From Campylobacterota bacterium (GTDB taxonomy: Bacteria > Campylobacterota > Campylobacteria > Campylobacterales > Sulfurovaceae), in NCBI GenBank assembly GCA_034722955.1, contig JAYEOM010000029.1:2275-21463 (forward strand): DNA of 19,189 nt, read 5' to 3'. Below the pieces are notes generated by a model that did not search any database, was not told the origin of the DNA, and saw only the letters and a program-made list of their open reading frames with translations. The position numbers and the translations under genes are program-made. Numbering within the stretch: position 1 is the first letter of the stretch; every line of letters starts with the position of its first letter. Below are positions 10,721 to 18,653 of this stretch, one piece after another.

Positions 10721-11012
10721 GGCTACCCCAAGGAGATAAACACCCAAATAGCTTTATGAGGTTTTTCATAGACAAGGCAATCGTTTGCAGGACTAGCCTT
10801 AGCTAATTGCCCGTAGGAAATGCCCTTGGGGTACAAAAACGATTAACGAAGTCATATGGGAAACCTCATAAAGCCCGTAGGGAAGTCACCAAGAGGGCAA
10901 TCTTCACAAAATATAATTCTCCAATTAGCTATGGCTAGTCCTACGAATTATATTTTGCAAATCTTACCCTCTTGGTGACTTCTATTTGTGTGTTTATCTC
11001 CTTGGGGTAGCC
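10721..11012. mobile_element. 292-bp MITE-like non-autonomous element with 31-bp TIRs and TTA target duplication
   Basis: TIRs ggctaccccaaggagataaacac(c/a)caaatag at 10721-10751 and 10982-11012 (30/31 match). TTA on both flanks (10718-10720, 11013-11015). No transposase ORF. Confidence 0.85.
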
Positions 11013-11979
11013 TTAGCAGACCGTTTGTCCGCTCTATAAACTCTTCAACTCTCTCTGACTCATCAAACTGTGTCGATACAACTTTGAAGCTCATATCAGG
11101 ATATGCCATAAAGTTGTGATTTTCAAGTGCTTGGCGTAGGCGTGCCTCAAGGATAGGAGCCCCCTCTACACCTGTATCGGGCAGGATGATGAGAAATAGG
11201 TTCTCATCATAACGACAAGCGATATCACTGGTGCGTGTGAGAGAGTTGATCAAGCCTCCCAGGATGGACGATATATGTGACTTCTCCTGCTTGGTGTAGA
11301 CTCTGCTTTTTCTGTCGAGATTGGCTGACTCTACAGAGATCATAGAGAGTGGGTAGTCGTGACGCTTCGATCTGGAACAAGCACTCTCTAGATGGCTGAT
11401 GAGATAGTTGTGATTAAAGAGTTTGGTCGGAATATCATAGATAGTATGTTTTGATAACTGCTTGTGCATATATTCACGCACCACAAAGATCATCAGAAGC
11501 AGAAAGATAACAGTAAGCAGAAAACTGATATAGAAGATATTTTCAACTCTATTTTGTTTAAGTGAGAGCATCTTGTCTACAGTAAAAGTGACTGATTTCA
11601 CTGCTCTCCAGCACTCCAATGCATTTTTGTTCTCAGGATCTGCTCGGAGTTCTCTCCAGCAGGATAGCACTCTATCGTAATCCTCTTGAAGTGTACGCCC
11701 TCCGACATAAAACTTTATTCTCCTGTTTGATTCAAACCATGGCGTGAGCCGCTCCAAGTCTCGATCTATTCGAGATCCAATCTCTTCGCGTTTGACTTCA
11801 TCATCTATCTGCTCATAAACAAGCATCTCGCCGCCACTCCTGCTCAACTGATGCATGACTGCTGTATCGGATGCTGCATCCTGTATGGCACTGTAGTTAA
11901 AGTAAAAACTAAAAGGGAGTATCAAAATCCCAAAATAGAGTAGCAGAGTGATACGGCAGTTTGACCAAGATGGTTGCAT
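10948..11979 (-). CDS. Membrane-bound sensor protein with degenerate GGDEF domain
   Basis: Two TM segments flank a periplasmic domain. YDIPTKLFN, YPLSMI, RTSDIACRY-DENLF-LIILPDT, with DENLF in place of GGDEF. AAGGA RBS. The last 21 aa derive from the MITE. Confidence 0.8.
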   Translation of the reverse strand: MQPSWSNCRITLLLYFGILILPFSFYFNYSAIQDAASDTAVMHQLSRSGGEMLVYEQIDDEVKREEIGSRIDRDLERLTPWFESNRRIKFYVGGRTLQEDYDRVLSCWRELRADPENKNALECWRAVKSVTFTVDKMLSLKQNRVENIFYISFLLTVIFLLLMIFVVREYMHKQLSKHTIYDIPTKLFNHNYLISHLESACSRSKRHDYPLSMISVESANLDRKSRVYTKQEKSHISSILGGLINSLTRTSDIACRYDENLFLIILPDTGVEGAPILEARLRQALENHNFMAYPDMSFKVVSTQFDESERVEEFIERTNGLLRLPQGDKHTNRSHQEGKICKI

Positions 11980-12021: not shown

Positions 12022-12486
12022 TTAATGCTCTATTAGAGTACCGCGTAGAGGTATGGGAAAAGTCTCTATATCTATAAGCAGACGCAATCTATCGCAGTAG
12101 TGGTTACTGCTACTGCCAAACTCTATGATGAGAGTTTCACTCTCTGATCCTGGATTGTCGATCTTGAGGATGATACAGTCACTACTATCTTCTATGATGA
12201 TATTGGCAATATGATTGCCTGTGTCAGTCGCCTCATTTTGGTTGACCATGACACGGATACTATCGGACATATCAGACAGATGAGCCGTTGTCTCTCCCCT
12301 GGCGACTGCATAAGAGACTATATCATTGGCTGCTGTCATAATGTTTTGTGCTTTTACCGAGAGCTTTGCATCCCATCTGGTAGCAGAGAGTTTAGGGATA
12401 GCAACCGCTGCCAAAATACCGATGATTACGATAACAAAGATCAACTCTATCATGGTGAAAGCTTTTCTATTTTTTATAATTAACAT
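12022..12486 (-). CDS. Type IV pilin/pseudopilin-like protein (prepilin N-terminal cleavage/methylation domain)
   Basis: RKA|FTMIELIFVIVIIGILAAVAIPKL class III signal with Glu5, two Cys in the C-terminal domain, AGGAG RBS. Confidence 0.88.
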   Translation of the reverse strand: MLIIKNRKAFTMIELIFVIVIIGILAAVAIPKLSATRWDAKLSVKAQNIMTAANDIVSYAVARGETTAHLSDMSDSIRVMVNQNEATDTGNHIANIIIEDSSDCIILKIDNPGSESETLIIEFGSSSNHYCDRLRLLIDIETFPIPLRGTLIEH

Positions 12487-12651: not shown

Positions 12652-13020
12652 ATGAAACGCGGATTTACTATGATCGAATTGATCTTTGTTATCGTTATTA
12701 TCGGTATTTTGGCAGCGGTTGCCATCCCTAAACTAGCAGCGACTAGAGATGATGCTAAAATCAGTACAGAGTTGAACAACCTATCGACTTGTATCAATGA
12801 TGTTGGTTCTGCATATACTGCACGAGGTGTATATGATAAGGACACACAGGCTTGTAATGCAGTAAAATGTTTTACTTTTACCAATAGTCAATATAACCTT
12901 CAGGTCTCGAATAATTCTGATGGTGGGTCACATTGTCCACAGGCAAATAGTGCTGCTAATTCAAAAGGTCTTGTAACTACTCATATCTTTGCAGGTACAG
13001 GTATAGACTACGACCAATAA
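12652..13020 (+). CDS. Type IV pilin-like protein (prepilin N-terminal cleavage/methylation domain)
   Basis: MKRG|FTMIELIFVIVIIGILAAVAIPKLAATRDDAK, four Cys. AAGGAG RBS places the start at ATG 12652 rather than 12619. Confidence 0.9.
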   Translation: MKRGFTMIELIFVIVIIGILAAVAIPKLAATRDDAKISTELNNLSTCINDVGSAYTARGVYDKDTQACNAVKCFTFTNSQYNLQVSNNSDGGSHCPQANSAANSKGLVTTHIFAGTGIDYDQ

Positions 13021-13036
13021 ATATATGGCTGCTGTT

Positions 13037-13063
13037 TAGAGCTTCTCTTTAGAGAAAGCTCTA
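13037..13063 (+). terminator. Stem-loop after the pilin gene (terminator or mRNA-stabilising hairpin)
   Basis: TAGAGCTT-CTCT-tt-AGAG-a-AAGCTCTA, with no immediate U-tract. Confidence 0.45.
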
Positions 13064-13084
13064 GGCACGGTTTAGATTTTATTT

Positions 13085-13124: not shown

Positions 13125-13187
13125 GAGTATTTTATCTCCAAGATATTAGACAAAGCTTCATATATCTCACTATATACAAAGGAGTAT

Positions 13188-15380
13188 TTGTTGACTATCA
13201 CAACAAGACTACAAAAAACAATCAGTTCACTTCTGTTGCCACAAGAAAACAGTAGTAGCAAAAAATTTTTACTCTACATACTTTTTGCTTATCTCTTTGG
13301 GATGATTGTTAGATTGACAACACTGGTGCAAGCACTGCAGATAGAAGCTTTCTGGCAAGATGGCAACCCTGTGGCTATCTGGACACCGGATGCAGGACGA
13401 TATGGATACTATGCGAAGGTTCTTTTGGATGGGGGTGACCTCCCTCTGAGTGCTGACTATCTGACCGGCTATCTTGTGGCGGGTCTCTCCTCTCTCTTCT
13501 CTATATCTGTAGAGTGGGTGATGCTCATACTCCCGGTTATCATCGCACCATTGATCGTGGTACCTATGATGATGATAGCCAAGAGCATAAACCAGCTCAC
13601 ACTGGGATTTTTAGCTTCTCTGATCGCAGTGAGTGAAAGCTACTACTATGCACGAACCAGTTTGGGATTTATGGACACTGATGGTGTCAATCTGCTTTTG
13701 ATCTTGTTCTCTTTGGCATTTATAGTCAAATCTATTCTGGAGAAAAAGCTGAGCTACGCTGTGACTGCTGCTCTATTTTTGCAACTCTTTTCACTATGGT
13801 ATCACTCCTCCAATATTATAAATCTCTTGATAATAGGTGTCTCTCTTGTGGTTGTATTGGTCTACTATCGCAGAGAGGCGGCAGCGGTACAACTCATATT
13901 TTTATTGGGAGTATCTGTTATACCTATCTCTTTTGGATTAAAACTGCTGGCTCTGTCTCTGCTATTTCTGCTCTTTGCTCTACTGAACAGATATAGAAAG
14001 ATATCTCCCAAAATCTACTTTTTTGTACTCTTCTCCTCTATAGCTATAGTAGCACTCTATATAGGGCCGGCACACTATCTCCATCGTGCAATGATCTATC
14101 TATCTCCAAATATTCAGCTGCACTACGGCACAAATGGCATTGACTACTCTTATGCAAATGACCTGCTGTCTGTTAGTGAAGCATCACCCTCAAGATTATG
14201 GGATTCTGGGGCTCCCCATTTTATGACAGATTTTTATCTGATGGTTGGGATAGTAGGGTATATACTCTTTGCTCTAGTCTATCCTCCTATGCTCTTTGTG
14301 GCTCCACTATTTGTGCTTGGTGCATTGTCTGCTTGGGGCGGTATACGCTTCTCTATGTATGCTACACCGGCATTGGCGTTTGGTGCTACCTATCTCCTGT
14401 ATCTACTGAAAGAGCTTTTTGCTAGATATCTCAAACCCTCAAGATATAGCAGTAGATTCCCATTCTATGTGACGACGCTCATCTTGCTATTGATGATATA
14501 TAATATTTTGATGATAAATATGTCTGCAATGCTAAAGACCAATATATATGCTCCTGAGGCAAAAGCACTAAAGGCAATTTCAAAAGATTTGAAAGATAGA
14601 GATACTATCATCAGCTGGTGGGATTATGGCTGGCCCCTATGGTACTATACCGGATATGACAATACTCTGGTTGACAATGGTAGGCACGGTGGTCCTGATT
14701 CATATATTATCGCTCGCATGTTGATAAGTTCAGATCCAGAGTACACTCGTAATACAGCTGTTATCTTAGGTGACAATAGATTGAAGTCAGTTGATAGGGG
14801 ATATAAGTTTGTATTGCCATACTTGGCGGAAGAGCATAACCTCTCAGCTCTCTTCTCTATGGACAAGAGAGATATAGAACTCTCCAAAGAGAGTCCGAGT
14901 GGTGATATATATATCATGCTTCACCATAAGATGTTGGATTATCTTGGTGTGTTAAATAGCTTTTCAAGAGAGAAGTTGACGGGTGGTTCATCAGGCTCTC
15001 TGCCTGTTGTGCGTATAACTGATCTTGTAAAGCCCTTCTCCTCCAACCATAGCCTAGTGGAGGGGTATTCGTATATACTAGATAGCAGTGACGGCAAGGT
15101 GCTAGATGCCAAAGGCAACAAAACAGCAGTCTCGGCAGTCACTATAGTCTCTGGTAACAAGAGAGAGAAGGGCTATCGATTTGAACATAAAGATGAAGAG
15201 ACTAAAGGTCAAGTAATAGTTTATCAAAATAAGTTCATCTGGCTAGACCAAGAGCTCTATGATAGTTTTTTCATCCAAGCAATGCTCTTTGATCTATATG
15301 ATAAAGATCTTTTTGAGAAGGTAGCTGAGACAGAGAGGATCAAGATCTTTAAGATAAAGAGATCCGGCAAGGATCAATAA
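13188..15380 (+). CDS. pglB: STT3/PglB-family N-oligosaccharyltransferase
   Basis: Multi-TM N-terminal domain. WTPD, YYART…DTD, SVSE, GIRF, WWDYG (14616-14630) and DNGRH motifs correspond to the PglB catalytic motifs. TTG start with AAGGAG RBS. Confidence 0.92.
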   Translation: MLTITTRLQKTISSLLLPQENSSSKKFLLYILFAYLFGMIVRLTTLVQALQIEAFWQDGNPVAIWTPDAGRYGYYAKVLLDGGDLPLSADYLTGYLVAGLSSLFSISVEWVMLILPVIIAPLIVVPMMMIAKSINQLTLGFLASLIAVSESYYYARTSLGFMDTDGVNLLLILFSLAFIVKSILEKKLSYAVTAALFLQLFSLWYHSSNIINLLIIGVSLVVVLVYYRREAAAVQLIFLLGVSVIPISFGLKLLALSLLFLLFALLNRYRKISPKIYFFVLFSSIAIVALYIGPAHYLHRAMIYLSPNIQLHYGTNGIDYSYANDLLSVSEASPSRLWDSGAPHFMTDFYLMVGIVGYILFALVYPPMLFVAPLFVLGALSAWGGIRFSMYATPALAFGATYLLYLLKELFARYLKPSRYSSRFPFYVTTLILLLMIYNILMINMSAMLKTNIYAPEAKALKAISKDLKDRDTIISWWDYGWPLWYYTGYDNTLVDNGRHGGPDSYIIARMLISSDPEYTRNTAVILGDNRLKSVDRGYKFVLPYLAEEHNLSALFSMDKRDIELSKESPSGDIYIMLHHKMLDYLGVLNSFSREKLTGGSSGSLPVVRITDLVKPFSSNHSLVEGYSYILDSSDGKVLDAKGNKTAVSAVTIVSGNKREKGYRFEHKDEETKGQVIVYQNKFIWLDQELYDSFFIQAMLFDLYDKDLFEKVAETERIKIFKIKRSGKDQ

Positions 15381-16726
15381 CTCCCCCTCTTGTATATAAC
15401 TGCGTCTAGTGTTTTGATCAAAATCATGATATCGAGATCAATAGACCAGTTGCGTACATACCATACATCCAACTGTACCCGCTCCATATAGTCAATATCA
15501 TTTCGTCCGCTCACTTGCCATAGACCTGTGATACCAGGGTTGACGGCAGAAAAATAGTGGAAATACTCCCCATATTTTACTATCTCCTTTTTGACAATAG
15601 GACGGGGTCCCACTAGTGACATCTCACCACGAAGGACATTGTATAGTTGTGGGAGTTCATCGAGAGATGTTTTGCGTAGGAAGTTGCCTATAGGGGTGAT
15701 GCGAGGGTCATTTTTGAGTTTATGCTCCCGCTCCCACTCTCTCCTAGCATTTTCATCTCTAGCTAGCACTCTCTCTAGTGCTTCATCGGCATCTGTTCGC
15801 ATAGTTCTGAACTTATAGATAGCAAATGGTTTACCTCTCCTTCCGATACGCATCTGAGTATAGATGGGATTGCCCGGACTTAGGAGTATGATCATCAGGT
15901 ATATGATCAGAAGTATAGGCAGAAGTGTGATGGTAATGAGCAGTGCTAGCATAAGATCAAAACTGTTTTTAATAAACTTGTCTAGTGGATGGAGGAGATT
16001 GTTTTTGATACTAAATGCAACACCTTTTTGAGTGATAGATCCGATGATCTCTGCATTTATGAGTGGGACTTTGCTAAGTTTTGGCAACAGAAGCAGGCGG
16101 CTAAAATCTTTTTGGAGTGTCTCTAGCCATTGAAAAGTTTCATCCATAGTGGCAGACTCTATCGCCACGACTACTGCGTAGAATGATTGATGGTTTGAGA
16201 TCATCTCTAACTCTCTAGGTATATCAGTATGCTCTTCGAGTAGGATAGTCTCTGCAATGACAAAACCAAAGGTCTCCTTTCCGTTGAACCAAGCATGGAC
16301 TTTTTTCAAGCCTTCGTCATCACAGATCACAAGAATCTGCTCTTGCAACCATGGGTATCTCAGCAGTATCTGCCGGATAAAATAGATGGGCAGAGGCAGT
16401 AGTAGATTGAGCATAAAATAGCTGATAACGATGAAACGAGAGTACTCTTCACTCTGCTTGGAGACAAAAAGGATCGAAAATAGTGCGATGAGTGCAAGAG
16501 TATCTGCTTTTATGATATTGAGCGATTGGGTTGAGCTTGCCATTCGGTTGCCAAAGAGCCCAAAGACAAAAAAAAAGAGAGCATATACCCCTATAAACCA
16601 AAAGTAGTGACCAAGAGGATGTGCTGCTATATCGCTGATGAAATAGCTAGATAGTGTATGGGCGACCAGTAGATTGACAAAGAGAAAAAAGATGTAGAGT
16701 GATGCCATAGTGACAAAGTAACGCAT
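15374..16726 (-). CDS. wbaP: Undecaprenyl-phosphate hexose-1-phosphate transferase, WbaP family
   Basis: N-terminal TMs and C-terminal Bac_transf domain: KNSFD, YKFRTM, KLKNDPRIT, LRKTSLDELPQ, MSLVGPRP, PGITGLWQVSGRN, YVRNWS. TGATG coupling to the upstream gene. Sugar specificity cannot be proven from sequence. Confidence 0.88.
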   Translation of the reverse strand: MRYFVTMASLYIFFLFVNLLVAHTLSSYFISDIAAHPLGHYFWFIGVYALFFFVFGLFGNRMASSTQSLNIIKADTLALIALFSILFVSKQSEEYSRFIVISYFMLNLLLPLPIYFIRQILLRYPWLQEQILVICDDEGLKKVHAWFNGKETFGFVIAETILLEEHTDIPRELEMISNHQSFYAVVVAIESATMDETFQWLETLQKDFSRLLLLPKLSKVPLINAEIIGSITQKGVAFSIKNNLLHPLDKFIKNSFDLMLALLITITLLPILLIIYLMIILLSPGNPIYTQMRIGRRGKPFAIYKFRTMRTDADEALERVLARDENARREWEREHKLKNDPRITPIGNFLRKTSLDELPQLYNVLRGEMSLVGPRPIVKKEIVKYGEYFHYFSAVNPGITGLWQVSGRNDIDYMERVQLDVWYVRNWSIDLDIMILIKTLDAVIYKRGSY

Positions 16727-17514
16727 CAAGATCTCCTCCTCCTGCTGAAGATCTTGCGCTTGAGCATCTCCATACCTTTGTTAAATAGATCTTCTCCTTC
16801 TAGATTGACTACTTCTAACTCAACAGTATTTAGAGTGTTGTGTCGTAACCAGACATTGAAGAGTCGCTCTCCCATAAATCCAAAAACCCGTTTCTGATAA
16901 GCATCGCGACCACTAACATCGATCTTCTCCTCTAGCGAGAATAGTAGAGGAAAGAGCCACTGGCAGTAGCTATCAAAGAGAGAATCGGACATCACAAACA
17001 TATTGTAGAGATAGAGTGATCGTTGCTTCAAAACTTGGTCAAAGGCTTGTAGATACTCAGGTGATCTCTCAAGAACTACCTCTCTGAGTATATCCATATC
17101 TTTATGGTAGTGAGCATGAGCATAGTGCGAAGAGATGGTTTCGATGTAGTAGTGTCGTTTTTTTGGGACGATGACATCATATGATGAGAGCAGGGTTTTG
17201 ATACTATCCTCATCGAGTATAGAGAGCTCTCCAAATTTATCGCTCGCAAACTTCTCATCCCCTGCAAAATAACGACGATAGTGTACTAGTCCAACATAGT
17301 CACTATCATCAAAATATCTGTTTTTCCAAGCCCAATAGAGTGCTGTAAGCTCACAAAAAGTGTCGTTTTTATCTGAAATATTATCTCCACTACTATCATA
17401 TAGGTAACCGAACCTAATGGTTCTAAGTGCTGTACCTACCTGTATGGGATGATAGAGTGGATCTTCAGGAAACTGGTATGGTCTGTGTGTTGCCACTAGT
17501 ATAGTACTTCTCAA
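16726..17514 (-). CDS. DUF4422 glycosyltransferase (GT111-type, putative galactofuranosyltransferase)
   Basis: VATH, PIQVG, GDNISDKNDTFCELTALYWAWKN, GLVHYRRYF, NMFVM, RVFGFMGERLFNVW. Coupled to glf by a TTGA overlap. Confidence 0.85.
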   Translation of the reverse strand: MRSTILVATHRPYQFPEDPLYHPIQVGTALRTIRFGYLYDSSGDNISDKNDTFCELTALYWAWKNRYFDDSDYVGLVHYRRYFAGDEKFASDKFGELSILDEDSIKTLLSSYDVIVPKKRHYYIETISSHYAHAHYHKDMDILREVVLERSPEYLQAFDQVLKQRSLYLYNMFVMSDSLFDSYCQWLFPLLFSLEEKIDVSGRDAYQKRVFGFMGERLFNVWLRHNTLNTVELEVVNLEGEDLFNKGMEMLKRKIFSRRRRS

Positions 17515-18653
17515 AATATCTCCTCAAAAAGTTCTAATGCCCTAGATACGATATCATCCATATCATAGTACCTGTATTCAGCAAGTCTCCCTATAAGTAT
17601 AAGGTTCTCTATCTCTTGTGCTCTCATAGCATATCTCCTATATTTTTCTTGATCTTTTAGTCTAAAGAGTGGGTAGTAGGGTAGATTTTCTCCTCGTATG
17701 TATGGTTGTGGGTACTCCTTGAGGATAGTTGTATTTTCGGTCGTCACGGGGTGGATATGTTTGAACTCTGTAATGCGTGTAAAGTCATACTCATTGGGGT
17801 AGTTGATGACACTCTTGGCTTGATACCACTCTTTTGAAATGTATTCAAAATCGAGCCGAAGAGAACGGTAGTCAAGCGATCCGAAGCACTCATCAAAGAG
17901 CTCATCTATCATACCCGTGAATAGCAATTTTCCCCCAAAGGGCTCACCACGGTAATAGATCTGGTCGCCCTCTATTTTGATCTCACTCTGAAAGGGTGTA
18001 TCAAGAGAGAGGGCGATCAGAGGATGTGCCAATAGCCTTTCAAATAGAGCCGTATAGCCCTCATTTGGCAGCTGTTGATATCTATCTTGAAAGTAGCGGT
18101 TGTCCCTGCTGATATGGACAGGTACTCTCGCTGTGACATCGAGATCTATCTCTTCAGGTCTCATCCCCCACTGCTTGATGGTGTAGTTCAAAAAAACATT
18201 TTTGTAAATATAGTCACTAAGCTCCTTTAGGTCAGTATCATCTGTTTTTTGTAACTCCAGAATGGGTACTTTGTCTCCATAGCCATATCGCTCTATCAGT
18301 TTGGCTTCAAGCTTTTTGGCTCTCTCTTCAGGGAAAAGCATATCGATACTATTGAGGTTGAAAGGTATCGGTACCTCCCTCCCTTCGATAGATGCCAATA
18401 CTTCATGCTCATAAGATTCCCAATCAGTAAAATTGGATAGATAGTCAATGACAGCTCTGTTGTCTGTATGGAAAAGGTGGGGTCCATACTGATGTATGCG
18501 AATGCCATTGGTATCTATAGTATCAAAACAGTTACCCCCAATATGAGAGCGTTTTTCGATGATATTTACGCTTTTGCCTAGCAGAGTAGTGATCCGTTCC
18601 GCCATCACCGCCCCGGCAAATCCTGCACCTACTATTAGATAATCATACATCAC
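17511..18653 (-). CDS. glf: UDP-galactopyranose mutase
   Basis: YLIVGAGFAGAV FAD motif, HIGGNCFD, YGPHLFHT, YTIKQWG, YFQDRYQ, TRITEFKH, PYYP, GRLAEYRYYDMD. Start is GTG 18653 or ATG 18650. Confidence 0.96.
   Translation of the reverse strand: MMYDYLIVGAGFAGAVMAERITTLLGKSVNIIEKRSHIGGNCFDTIDTNGIRIHQYGPHLFHTDNRAVIDYLSNFTDWESYEHEVLASIEGREVPIPFNLNSIDMLFPEERAKKLEAKLIERYGYGDKVPILELQKTDDTDLKELSDYIYKNVFLNYTIKQWGMRPEEIDLDVTARVPVHISRDNRYFQDRYQQLPNEGYTALFERLLAHPLIALSLDTPFQSEIKIEGDQIYYRGEPFGGKLLFTGMIDELFDECFGSLDYRSLRLDFEYISKEWYQAKSVINYPNEYDFTRITEFKHIHPVTTENTTILKEYPQPYIRGENLPYYPLFRLKDQEKYRRYAMRAQEIENLILIGRLAEYRYYDMDDIVSRALELFEEIF

Follow-up and report, generated by a model that had tools for sequence, protein, structure and literature searches.

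In the Campylobacter lari oligosaccharyltransferase (OST) PglB, arginine R331 forms a salt bridge with the acidic residue found at the sequon's -2 position (D/E-X-N-X-S/T). Here we describe a divergent second copy of a PglB/STT3-type N-oligosaccharyltransferase that lacks this arginine. It is encoded at positions 13188..15380 (+ strand; 730 codons from a TTG at 13188) of a 19,189-nucleotide stretch of contig JAYEOM010000029.1, from a Campylobacterota bacterium of the family Sulfurovaceae (assembly GCA_034722955.1). We refer to this whole stretch as the window, and to the enzyme as the window PglB. Comparison of sequences and gene order leads us to propose that the window PglB is an accessory N-OST, which most likely N-glycosylates the adjacent type IV pilin at N-X-S/T sites that lack an acidic -2 residue (probability about 0.6). 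The proposal is built on observed gene identity, motifs, paralogy, synteny and sequon statistics, from which we infer that the enzyme is active and accepts the pilin, as well as the rule for its sequons and the nature of the glycan.

The window PglB shares with the C. lari and C. jejuni PglB enzymes (3RCE, 5OGL, 6GXC) a full-length sequence family, the catalytic residues and the WWDYG motif. It differs from them in having SVSE, proline and tyrosine in place of TIxE, R331 and I572. Unlike Campylobacter PglB, it is also encoded outside a pgl cluster, where it adjoins pilin genes and a gene for a WbaP-like transferase.

The arrangement of an oligosaccharyltransferase gene beside a pilin gene is known from O-linked systems: TfpO/PilO is a pilin-dedicated O-oligosaccharyltransferase (O-OTase) encoded beside its pilin. 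Both TfpO/PilO and PglS are O-OTases of the Wzy_C family, whereas the window enzyme is an STT3-family N-OST without a Wzy_C match. The gene logic of PglS with ComP is the same, in that the OTase gene directly adjoins that of the pilin it serves (PMC8457361, as far as its available text goes). In the literature at abstract level, we found no bacterial type IV pilin whose N-glycosylation was attributed to a PglB, the archaea providing the only cases of N-glycosylated type IV pilins. R331-less vent PglBs may already be described in a study of deep-sea vent PglBs by Mills et al. 2016. Archaeal AglB, likewise an STT3-family OST, N-glycosylates type IV pilin-like subunits and archaellins at plain N-X-S/T (e.g. 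PMC5131992, in its available part). The likeness is in logic only: AglB belongs to another domain of life, and the window protein is PglB-like, its best PDB matches being PglB.

Single-subunit bacterial OSTs with no need for a -2 acid are described from Desulfovibrio (DgPglB, DmPglB, DdPglB and DvPglB) and carry SVxE-like motifs (PMC4894442, PMC12229607; both sources available in part). The window PglB resembles DdPglB (S358 at the arginine position) and DvPglB (Y381), in which the arginine is likewise gone; relaxed DgPglB retains it (PMC4894442, PMC12229607). The Desulfovibrio proteins are characterised enzymes from another phylum, with WWDWG and NL motifs (PMC12229607), whereas the window PglB retains WWDYG and shows MxxY, accompanies a canonical PglB as the second copy in its genome and is linked to a pilin gene, and its specificity is predicted. 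According to the available parts of these papers, it is not yet settled what determines the minus-two rule in bacteria (PMC4894442, PMC12229607). In Campylobacterota, Helicobacter pullorum PglB2 is also a divergent second PglB, in a genome with a working PglB1, and has its catalytic residues kept; the available part of that report mentions no pilin link, unlike the situation of the window PglB (PMC6025236).

Identity and acceptor loop of the window PglB

The translation is a 730-residue membrane protein (729 amino acids in the database copy) that scores above the Pfam cut-offs for STT3 (78.4 against 24.5 bits) and for STT3-PglB_core (62.4 against 23 bits). In a phmmer comparison with C. lari PglB (3RCE), residues 20-726 aligned on residues 9-713 with an E value of 4.2e-58, and a profile of 24 members of its clade (see below) matched the same protein at 2.6e-87. 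Tandem TTG codons at 13188 and 13191 are the sole candidate starts, as no ATG occurs before the first membrane helix, and they are preceded by a strong ribosome-binding site (RBS; AAGGAG, 13179-13184, + strand). By alignment, the catalytic set D68/R156/D163/D165/E331/R387 corresponds to C. lari D56/R147/D154/D156/E319/R375. The WWD residues align to C. lari W457-D459 and form part of WWDYGW (14616..14633, + strand), read from the translation and the clade alignment as the motif that binds the sequon +2 residue. The protein thus carries the WWDYG signature of the STT3/PglB/AglB (GT66) family, and the catalytic equivalents and WWD are conserved in 22 to 24 of the 24 clade members, the catalytic equivalents by themselves in 23-24. 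Three marks of canonical Campylobacter-type PglB are missing, namely R331, the TIxE/MxxI motifs and the NCBIfam PglB equivalog score (225 bits where 1300 are required; with 483.7 bits, the canonical-type paralog of the same genome also falls short). No Wzy_C domain was found by Pfam in the window PglB or in any of the 20 window open reading frames (ORFs) scanned. As judged by its sequence, the window PglB is an intact enzyme of the PglB/STT3 family.

We therefore give very little credence to the view that this pglB is an inactive or decaying duplicate: it has a full-length open frame with a strong RBS, and its catalytic residues are kept over 24 members only 39-74% identical to the window protein. 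What speaks for decay is rarity. Of 401 species-representative genomes sampled across the order, one, the window's own, had a clade match at E <= 1e-110, and no clade member was found in 13 genomes of the same genus, one fragment excepted.

The genome contains two STT3 genes, the window copy and a canonical PglB gene on contig C35. The latter protein has TVRE, arginine at E+12 (twelve residues after the motif glutamate) and MLRI, and its gene is followed by one for a small, PglC-like Bac_transf protein of 198 amino acids. In a FastTree phylogeny of 109 rows of PglB relatives, with the motif columns read per clade, the window PglB fell in a well-supported clade of 27 rows, none of which has lysine or arginine in the R331 column and 25 of which have tyrosine or phenylalanine in the I572 column. 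In contrast, all 14 rows of the canonical clade combine arginine with isoleucine. The R331 column is variable in the remaining non-canonical clades (Q, N, G, L, Y and sometimes R). The window clade is rare and is made up of Sulfurovum-type sequences and sequences from vent or brine metagenomes; public names of its members include "STT3 domain-containing protein [Sulfurovum sp.]". Altered WWD motifs occur among the relatives (SWDYG, WWEYG, TWDYG, PWDYG, EWDYG and FWDNG, at L035:4932-7088, L012/L049, L052 and L059/L060 and in proteins P0026 and P0051), with the catalytic residues otherwise retained.

The first-pass annotation of this DNA had read SVSE, the proline, an arginine at E+5, MLDY and the NLS and NNS sequons from the letters, and all of these translate where it placed them. 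SVSE, the counterpart of the TIxE/SVxE motif of external loop 5, lies at 14169..14180 (+ strand), and its glutamate, E331 (14178-14180), equivalent to C. lari E319, is shared by all 53 sequences of an alignment. At E+12, Pro343 (14214..14216, + strand) occupies the position of C. lari R331, both in the profile alignment and in MAFFT. The annotation's claim that no gap is needed up to the next transmembrane helix holds: the 24-member profile runs without a gap on 3RCE from TIME (316-319) to that helix and places proline on R331, and MAFFT alignment with the canonical paralog (TVRE...N-R at E+12) gives the same column. The profile alignment was used because single-sequence phmmer against 3RCE shifted the external loop 5 region by three residues and introduced a gap. 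The absence of an R331 equivalent was thus borne out by alignment to the C. lari enzyme and extends to the clade, whose 24 members have proline 20 times and alanine, serine, leucine and valine once each in this column, and lysine or arginine never. MLDY (14931..14942, + strand) does stand in place of MxxI, aligning with C. lari M569-L-R-I572 so that Tyr585 takes the position of I572, where 22 of the 24 members have tyrosine or phenylalanine. A tryptophan at E+7 is invariant among the 24.

A substitute basic residue, such as Arg336 at E+5 (14193..14195, + strand), could in principle read an acidic -2 residue that the window PglB would still require, making it a functionally canonical duplicate. 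Arg336 falls within the five residues after TIxE that lie near the -2 position in AfAglB (PMC12229607, in its available part). Yet arginine at E+5 is present in just 2 of the 24 clade members, lysine or arginine anywhere in E+1..E+5 in 12 of 24, and D339 takes the place of V327, which lines the pocket in C. lari PglB. Moreover, acidic sequons number 0 of 35 in the neighbouring pilins described below, and we regard this explanation as highly improbable.

Pilin linkage and sequon composition

The proposed acceptor is encoded immediately upstream of pglB, at 12652..13020 (+ strand), with an AAGGAG RBS upstream of its ATG at 12652. It matches N_methyl (28.1 bits, cut-off 21.2) and TIGR02532 (33 bits, cut-off 16.3). 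The protein has the class III signal peptide of type IV pilins, MKRG/FTMIELIFVIVIIG (MKRG/FTMIE), with G-1, F+1 and E+5 ahead of a hydrophobic helix, and it is 50-70% identical to the pilins that adjoin the PglBs of other clade members. A second, divergent pilin with an N_methyl match lies at 12022..12486 (- strand) and is transcribed away from the first; it is a conserved member of the module and is 60% identical to L031:3730-4200. Beyond it, at 10948..11979 (- strand), is a gene for a protein with a Pfam GGDEF domain.

We compared the window with eight metagenome loci whose PglBs are 42-48% identical to the window PglB. In 8 of these 9 loci, about 4-180 bp separate pglB from a homologous pilin gene, and L031 has such a gene on each side. 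The order GGDEF, divergent pilin, pilin, pglB is common to the window, L031, L036 and L043. Among relatives at 35% identity or less, the genome loci L003-L030 contained no adjacent pilin ORF (one non-pilin regular-expression match, in L009). The genome also encodes pilus machinery, including a prepilin peptidase, PilB/PilT-like ATPases, platform proteins and secretins.

We then scored sequons in all pilin ORFs of each set of loci by one rule, with expectations taken from 1000 shuffles. The 10 PglB-adjacent (linked) pilins contain 35 N-X-S/T sequons against 22.0 +/- 4.0 in shuffles, of which 3 in 1000 reach 35, and none of the 35 has D or E at -2. Without the pilin of L041, whose PglB belongs to a sister group, 9 pilins and 31 sequons remain, again with no acidic one. 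For comparison, an unlinked set was taken from the best 29 loci of a family-wide pilin search, which had a match in 105 of 121 genomes; none of these loci contains an OST gene. Four of the 29 were left out as their genomes had no PglB match. In the 25 kept, from related PglB-bearing genomes, we counted 111 sequons in 53 pilins, where 75.2 +/- 7.2 would be expected, and 67 of the 111 are acidic at -2, against 8.6 +/- 2.9 expected, a value reached in 0 of 1000 shuffles. A stricter unlinked set, narrowed from 61 pilin ORFs to 39 (at least 95 window-pilin residues covered) and then to 32 (at least 45% identity), gave a similar picture, with 55 of 86 sequons acidic. No enrichment was seen in 17 pilins from six genomes that are at least 90% complete and in which we found no STT3 gene: these pilins have 16 sequons, 4 of them acidic, where 16.1 would be expected. 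Counts of the mirror motif served as a control, and the forward and mirror numbers were 35 and 20 in linked, 111 and 53 in unlinked, and 16 and 12 in STT3-less pilins; acidic sequons in the unlinked set numbered 67 forward and 8 in mirror.

When the 10 linked pilins are aligned with the 32 of the stricter unlinked set, the two kinds of pilin differ at the same sites. Column 111 reads D/E-x-N-[ILV]-[ST] in 26 of 26 unlinked pilins and is acid-free in 5 of 5 linked pilins (GGNLT, TNNLT twice, ANNVT and QGNLT). At columns 58/59, the sequon is acidic in 9 of 9 unlinked pilins versus acid-free in 6 of 6 linked ones. Linked pilins further hold sequons at the clade-specific columns 55, 62, 92, 106, 121 and 128. 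Within the window genome itself, the type-B pilin on contig C63, with no OST gene nearby, reads D-E-N-H-S at a site that is S-A-N-H-T in the linked pilins of type B.

A PglB without the arginine adjoins pilins with acid-free motifs, which suggests a joint change of enzyme and substrate. The first-pass annotation had proposed such a match from the window alone. At the level of the clade it is supported, by 0 of 35 linked versus 67 of 111 unlinked sequons acidic and by the pilin link in 8 of 9 loci; the two sequons of the window pilin itself, taken up below, stand at chance level and do not carry it. The comparative evidence for a matched acid-free pair across the clade is good, and it does not establish loss of R331 alone as the cause.

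The mechanism we propose is as follows. The acceptor-binding loop would have been remodelled, with SVSE, the invariant tryptophan at E+7, proline in place of the arginine that reads -2, and tyrosine or phenylalanine in place of the isoleucine of MxxI. Its gene belongs, together with those of type IV pilins, to a conserved module, and the enzyme would modify the pilin in the periplasm, at N-X-S/T sites with no need for an acidic -2 residue; an acid there may even be disfavoured. The canonical PglB encoded on C35 would handle D/E-X-N-X-S/T sites.

Conserved canonical sequons, such as DGNIT, EDNST and DLNGT, are carried by pilins of the family at loci L080-L108 (for example L099, L089 and L081), in at least nine genera. 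The 67 of 111 acidic sequons in family pilins, against 8.6 expected, imply that the general PglB glycosylates pili there. A broader scenario, to which we would give slightly less than an even chance, is that Campylobacterota of vents and brines N-glycosylate their type IV pili, in most genomes of the family by way of the general PglB at conserved D/E-X-N-X-S/T sites, and that in a rare lineage a dedicated, pilin-linked paralog lost the arginine and its pilins gave up the acid at these sites in step, a natural case of co-evolution between OST and sequon. Two PglB types exist in one family, and both in the window genome, and homologous pilins switch between D/E-x-N-x-S/T and acid-free sequons at the same columns. 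Such a natural experiment could point to determinants of specificity, among them the Pro/Arg column, the invariant tryptophan at E+7 and MxxY. The comparison also predicts N-linked glycosylation of bacterial type IV pili.

Weighing the pilin as acceptor

Several observations weigh against the adjacent pilin as an acceptor read without an acid. The first concern the window pilin itself. Its two sequons are N-L-S (LN-NLS, 12778..12786, + strand; column 38), with leucine at -2, and N-N-S (VS-NNS, 12910..12918, + strand; column 117), with valine at -2, located between the two cysteines of the C-terminal half. Both lack an acidic -2 residue, as had been claimed for them, and the divergent pilin at 12022-12486 indeed has no N-X-S/T at all. 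Two sequons are, however, what chance provides (1.97 expected in shuffles of the pilin's own composition), and columns 38 and 117 are acid-free in unlinked pilins as well, with such a sequon at column 38 in 17 of them. The site at column 111 has been lost and reads QYNLQ.

Other points bear on the statistics. As 9 of the 10 linked pilins come from one clade, there are some 2-3 independent contrasts, and a Fisher P of 2.9e-12 overstates the difference. Depletion of -2 acids inside the linked pilins alone is weak (0 of 35 sequons versus 8 of 70 non-sequon asparagines, P 0.05). In L031, L036 and L043, the pilins of the divergent, P0003 type have 7 sequons, of which 3 are acidic. In two genomes, G047 and G073 (L110, L117 and L106), three queries found no STT3 gene, and 15 of the 19 pilin sequons are acidic; the genomes are 67-74% complete, so that absence of PglB from them is not demonstrable. 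A PglB-less genus (g5) had at first been counted as a contradiction, with 17 of 24 sequons acidic; it was set aside as such once split into a pair of genomes at least 90% complete (2 of 5) and the pair that is 67-74% complete (15 of 19).

A third group concerns the enzyme and its locus. The pilin-adjacent PglB of L041 (L041:383-3029) has arginine at E+12 (ESRGRFD) and MFNY, and its pilin carries 4 acid-free sequons. Because this enzyme and relaxed DgPglB (PMC4894442, in its available part) both keep the arginine, its loss is neither necessary nor proven sufficient for a relaxed sequon, and the first-pass annotation's use of R331 loss as a predictor proved unreliable. The L041 PglB is, for the same features, a useful counter-example for mapping specificity. 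R336, or a lysine or arginine elsewhere within E+1..E+5, might take the role of R331 at the -2 pocket. One clade member, that of L035, has no pilin neighbour, and its enzyme carries SWDYG. H. pullorum PglB2, also a second copy, has shown no detectable activity (PMC6025236, in its available part). Directly after the pilin stop, a strong hairpin followed by a T-rich tract (13027..13072, + strand; -27.4 kcal/mol, z -5.2, 0 of 200 shuffles as stable) forms a likely terminator or attenuator, so that co-transcription of pilin and pglB is uncertain. The hairpin would suit strong expression of the pilin, with transcription reading on into pglB to a limited extent. Finally, genes of the Wzy_C type (O-antigen ligase/PglL-type) directly adjoin the module's type-B pilin at L031:7548-8879, L034:3016-4281 and L039:1218-2849, which makes an O-linked route possible. 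N- and O-linked glycosylation of pilins may coexist in these three loci.

Two further explanations draw on this evidence. The window PglB could serve the periplasm in general, as an N-OST whose sequon is relaxed or altered in the manner of the Desulfovibrio PglBs and which has many substrates, the pilin being a mere neighbour or one acceptor of many. Relaxed PglBs with SVxE-type motifs do serve many acceptors, according to the available parts of PMC4894442 and PMC12229607, and both the pilin-less L035 locus and further R331-less second PglBs of the family without a pilin link fit such a role. Against it stand the pilins at about 4-180 bp in 8 of 9 clade loci, and the fact that neighbouring pilins are enriched in N-X-S/T (35 versus 22.0) and have a sequon type unlike that of unlinked pilins. 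We consider a general OST unlikely.

Equally unlikely, in our view, is that the enzyme does not act on the pilin at all. The module would then be part of a shared surface-glycan island, the pilins would be unmodified or O-glycosylated by a Wzy_C-type enzyme, their sequons would be decayed canonical sites, and the second PglB would serve other acceptors or release free oligosaccharide. Such an island is consistent with the Wzy_C genes and variable sugar genes around the module, the chance-level sequon count of the window pilin, the hairpin between pilin and pglB and the elusive activity of H. pullorum PglB2 (PMC6025236). Decay, however, predicts that enrichment is lost, yet the linked pilins hold 35 sequons against 22.0 expected (3/1000) and 20 in mirror, and those at columns 55, 62, 92, 106, 121 and 128 indicate gains and not only remnants. 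In addition, the Pfam scan found no Wzy_C gene in the window. N-glycosylation of the adjacent pilin at acid-free sites thus remains our preferred reading.

Neighbouring sugar genes and the predicted glycan

Downstream of pglB and convergent with it, at 15374..16729 (- strand), is a gene for a WbaP-like polyprenyl-phosphate hexose-1-phosphate transferase, with a Bac_transf domain and matches to TIGR03022 (402 bits, cut-off 403) and TIGR03025 (339 bits, cut-off 295.6). It is followed by genes for a DUF4422 protein, a putative glycosyltransferase (16726..17514, - strand; PF14393, 299.5 bits), and for the UDP-galactopyranose mutase Glf (17511..18653, - strand; TIGR00031, 484 bits, cut-off 303.75). 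The initiating transferase encoded beside pglB is therefore of the WbaP-like hexose-1-phosphate type and not a small PglC.

The glycan would probably be made by the WbaP-like transferase, the DUF4422 protein and Glf, and would contain galactofuranose. If the WbaP-like enzyme feeds the window OST, the reducing-end sugar would have no C2 acetamido group, as this enzyme starts on hexose. Canonical PglB needs a C2 acetamido group on the reducing-end sugar (PMC6025236, in its available part), and the window paralog may thus also transfer a galactofuranose-containing glycan, started by the WbaP-like enzyme, that canonical PglB would refuse. As a new PglB scaffold for glycoengineering, it may work on sequons that resemble those of eukaryotes and perhaps with glycans that start on a hexose.

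The GC content of the module (0.38-0.39) is slightly lower than that of the rest of the window (0.41-0.46), a difference that is not decisive for a horizontal origin. Genes downstream of the module vary among loci and are always sugar genes, those of the relatives including Wzy_C, Glf, ManC and GMD; Glf adjoins the module in L034 and L039 as it does in the window.

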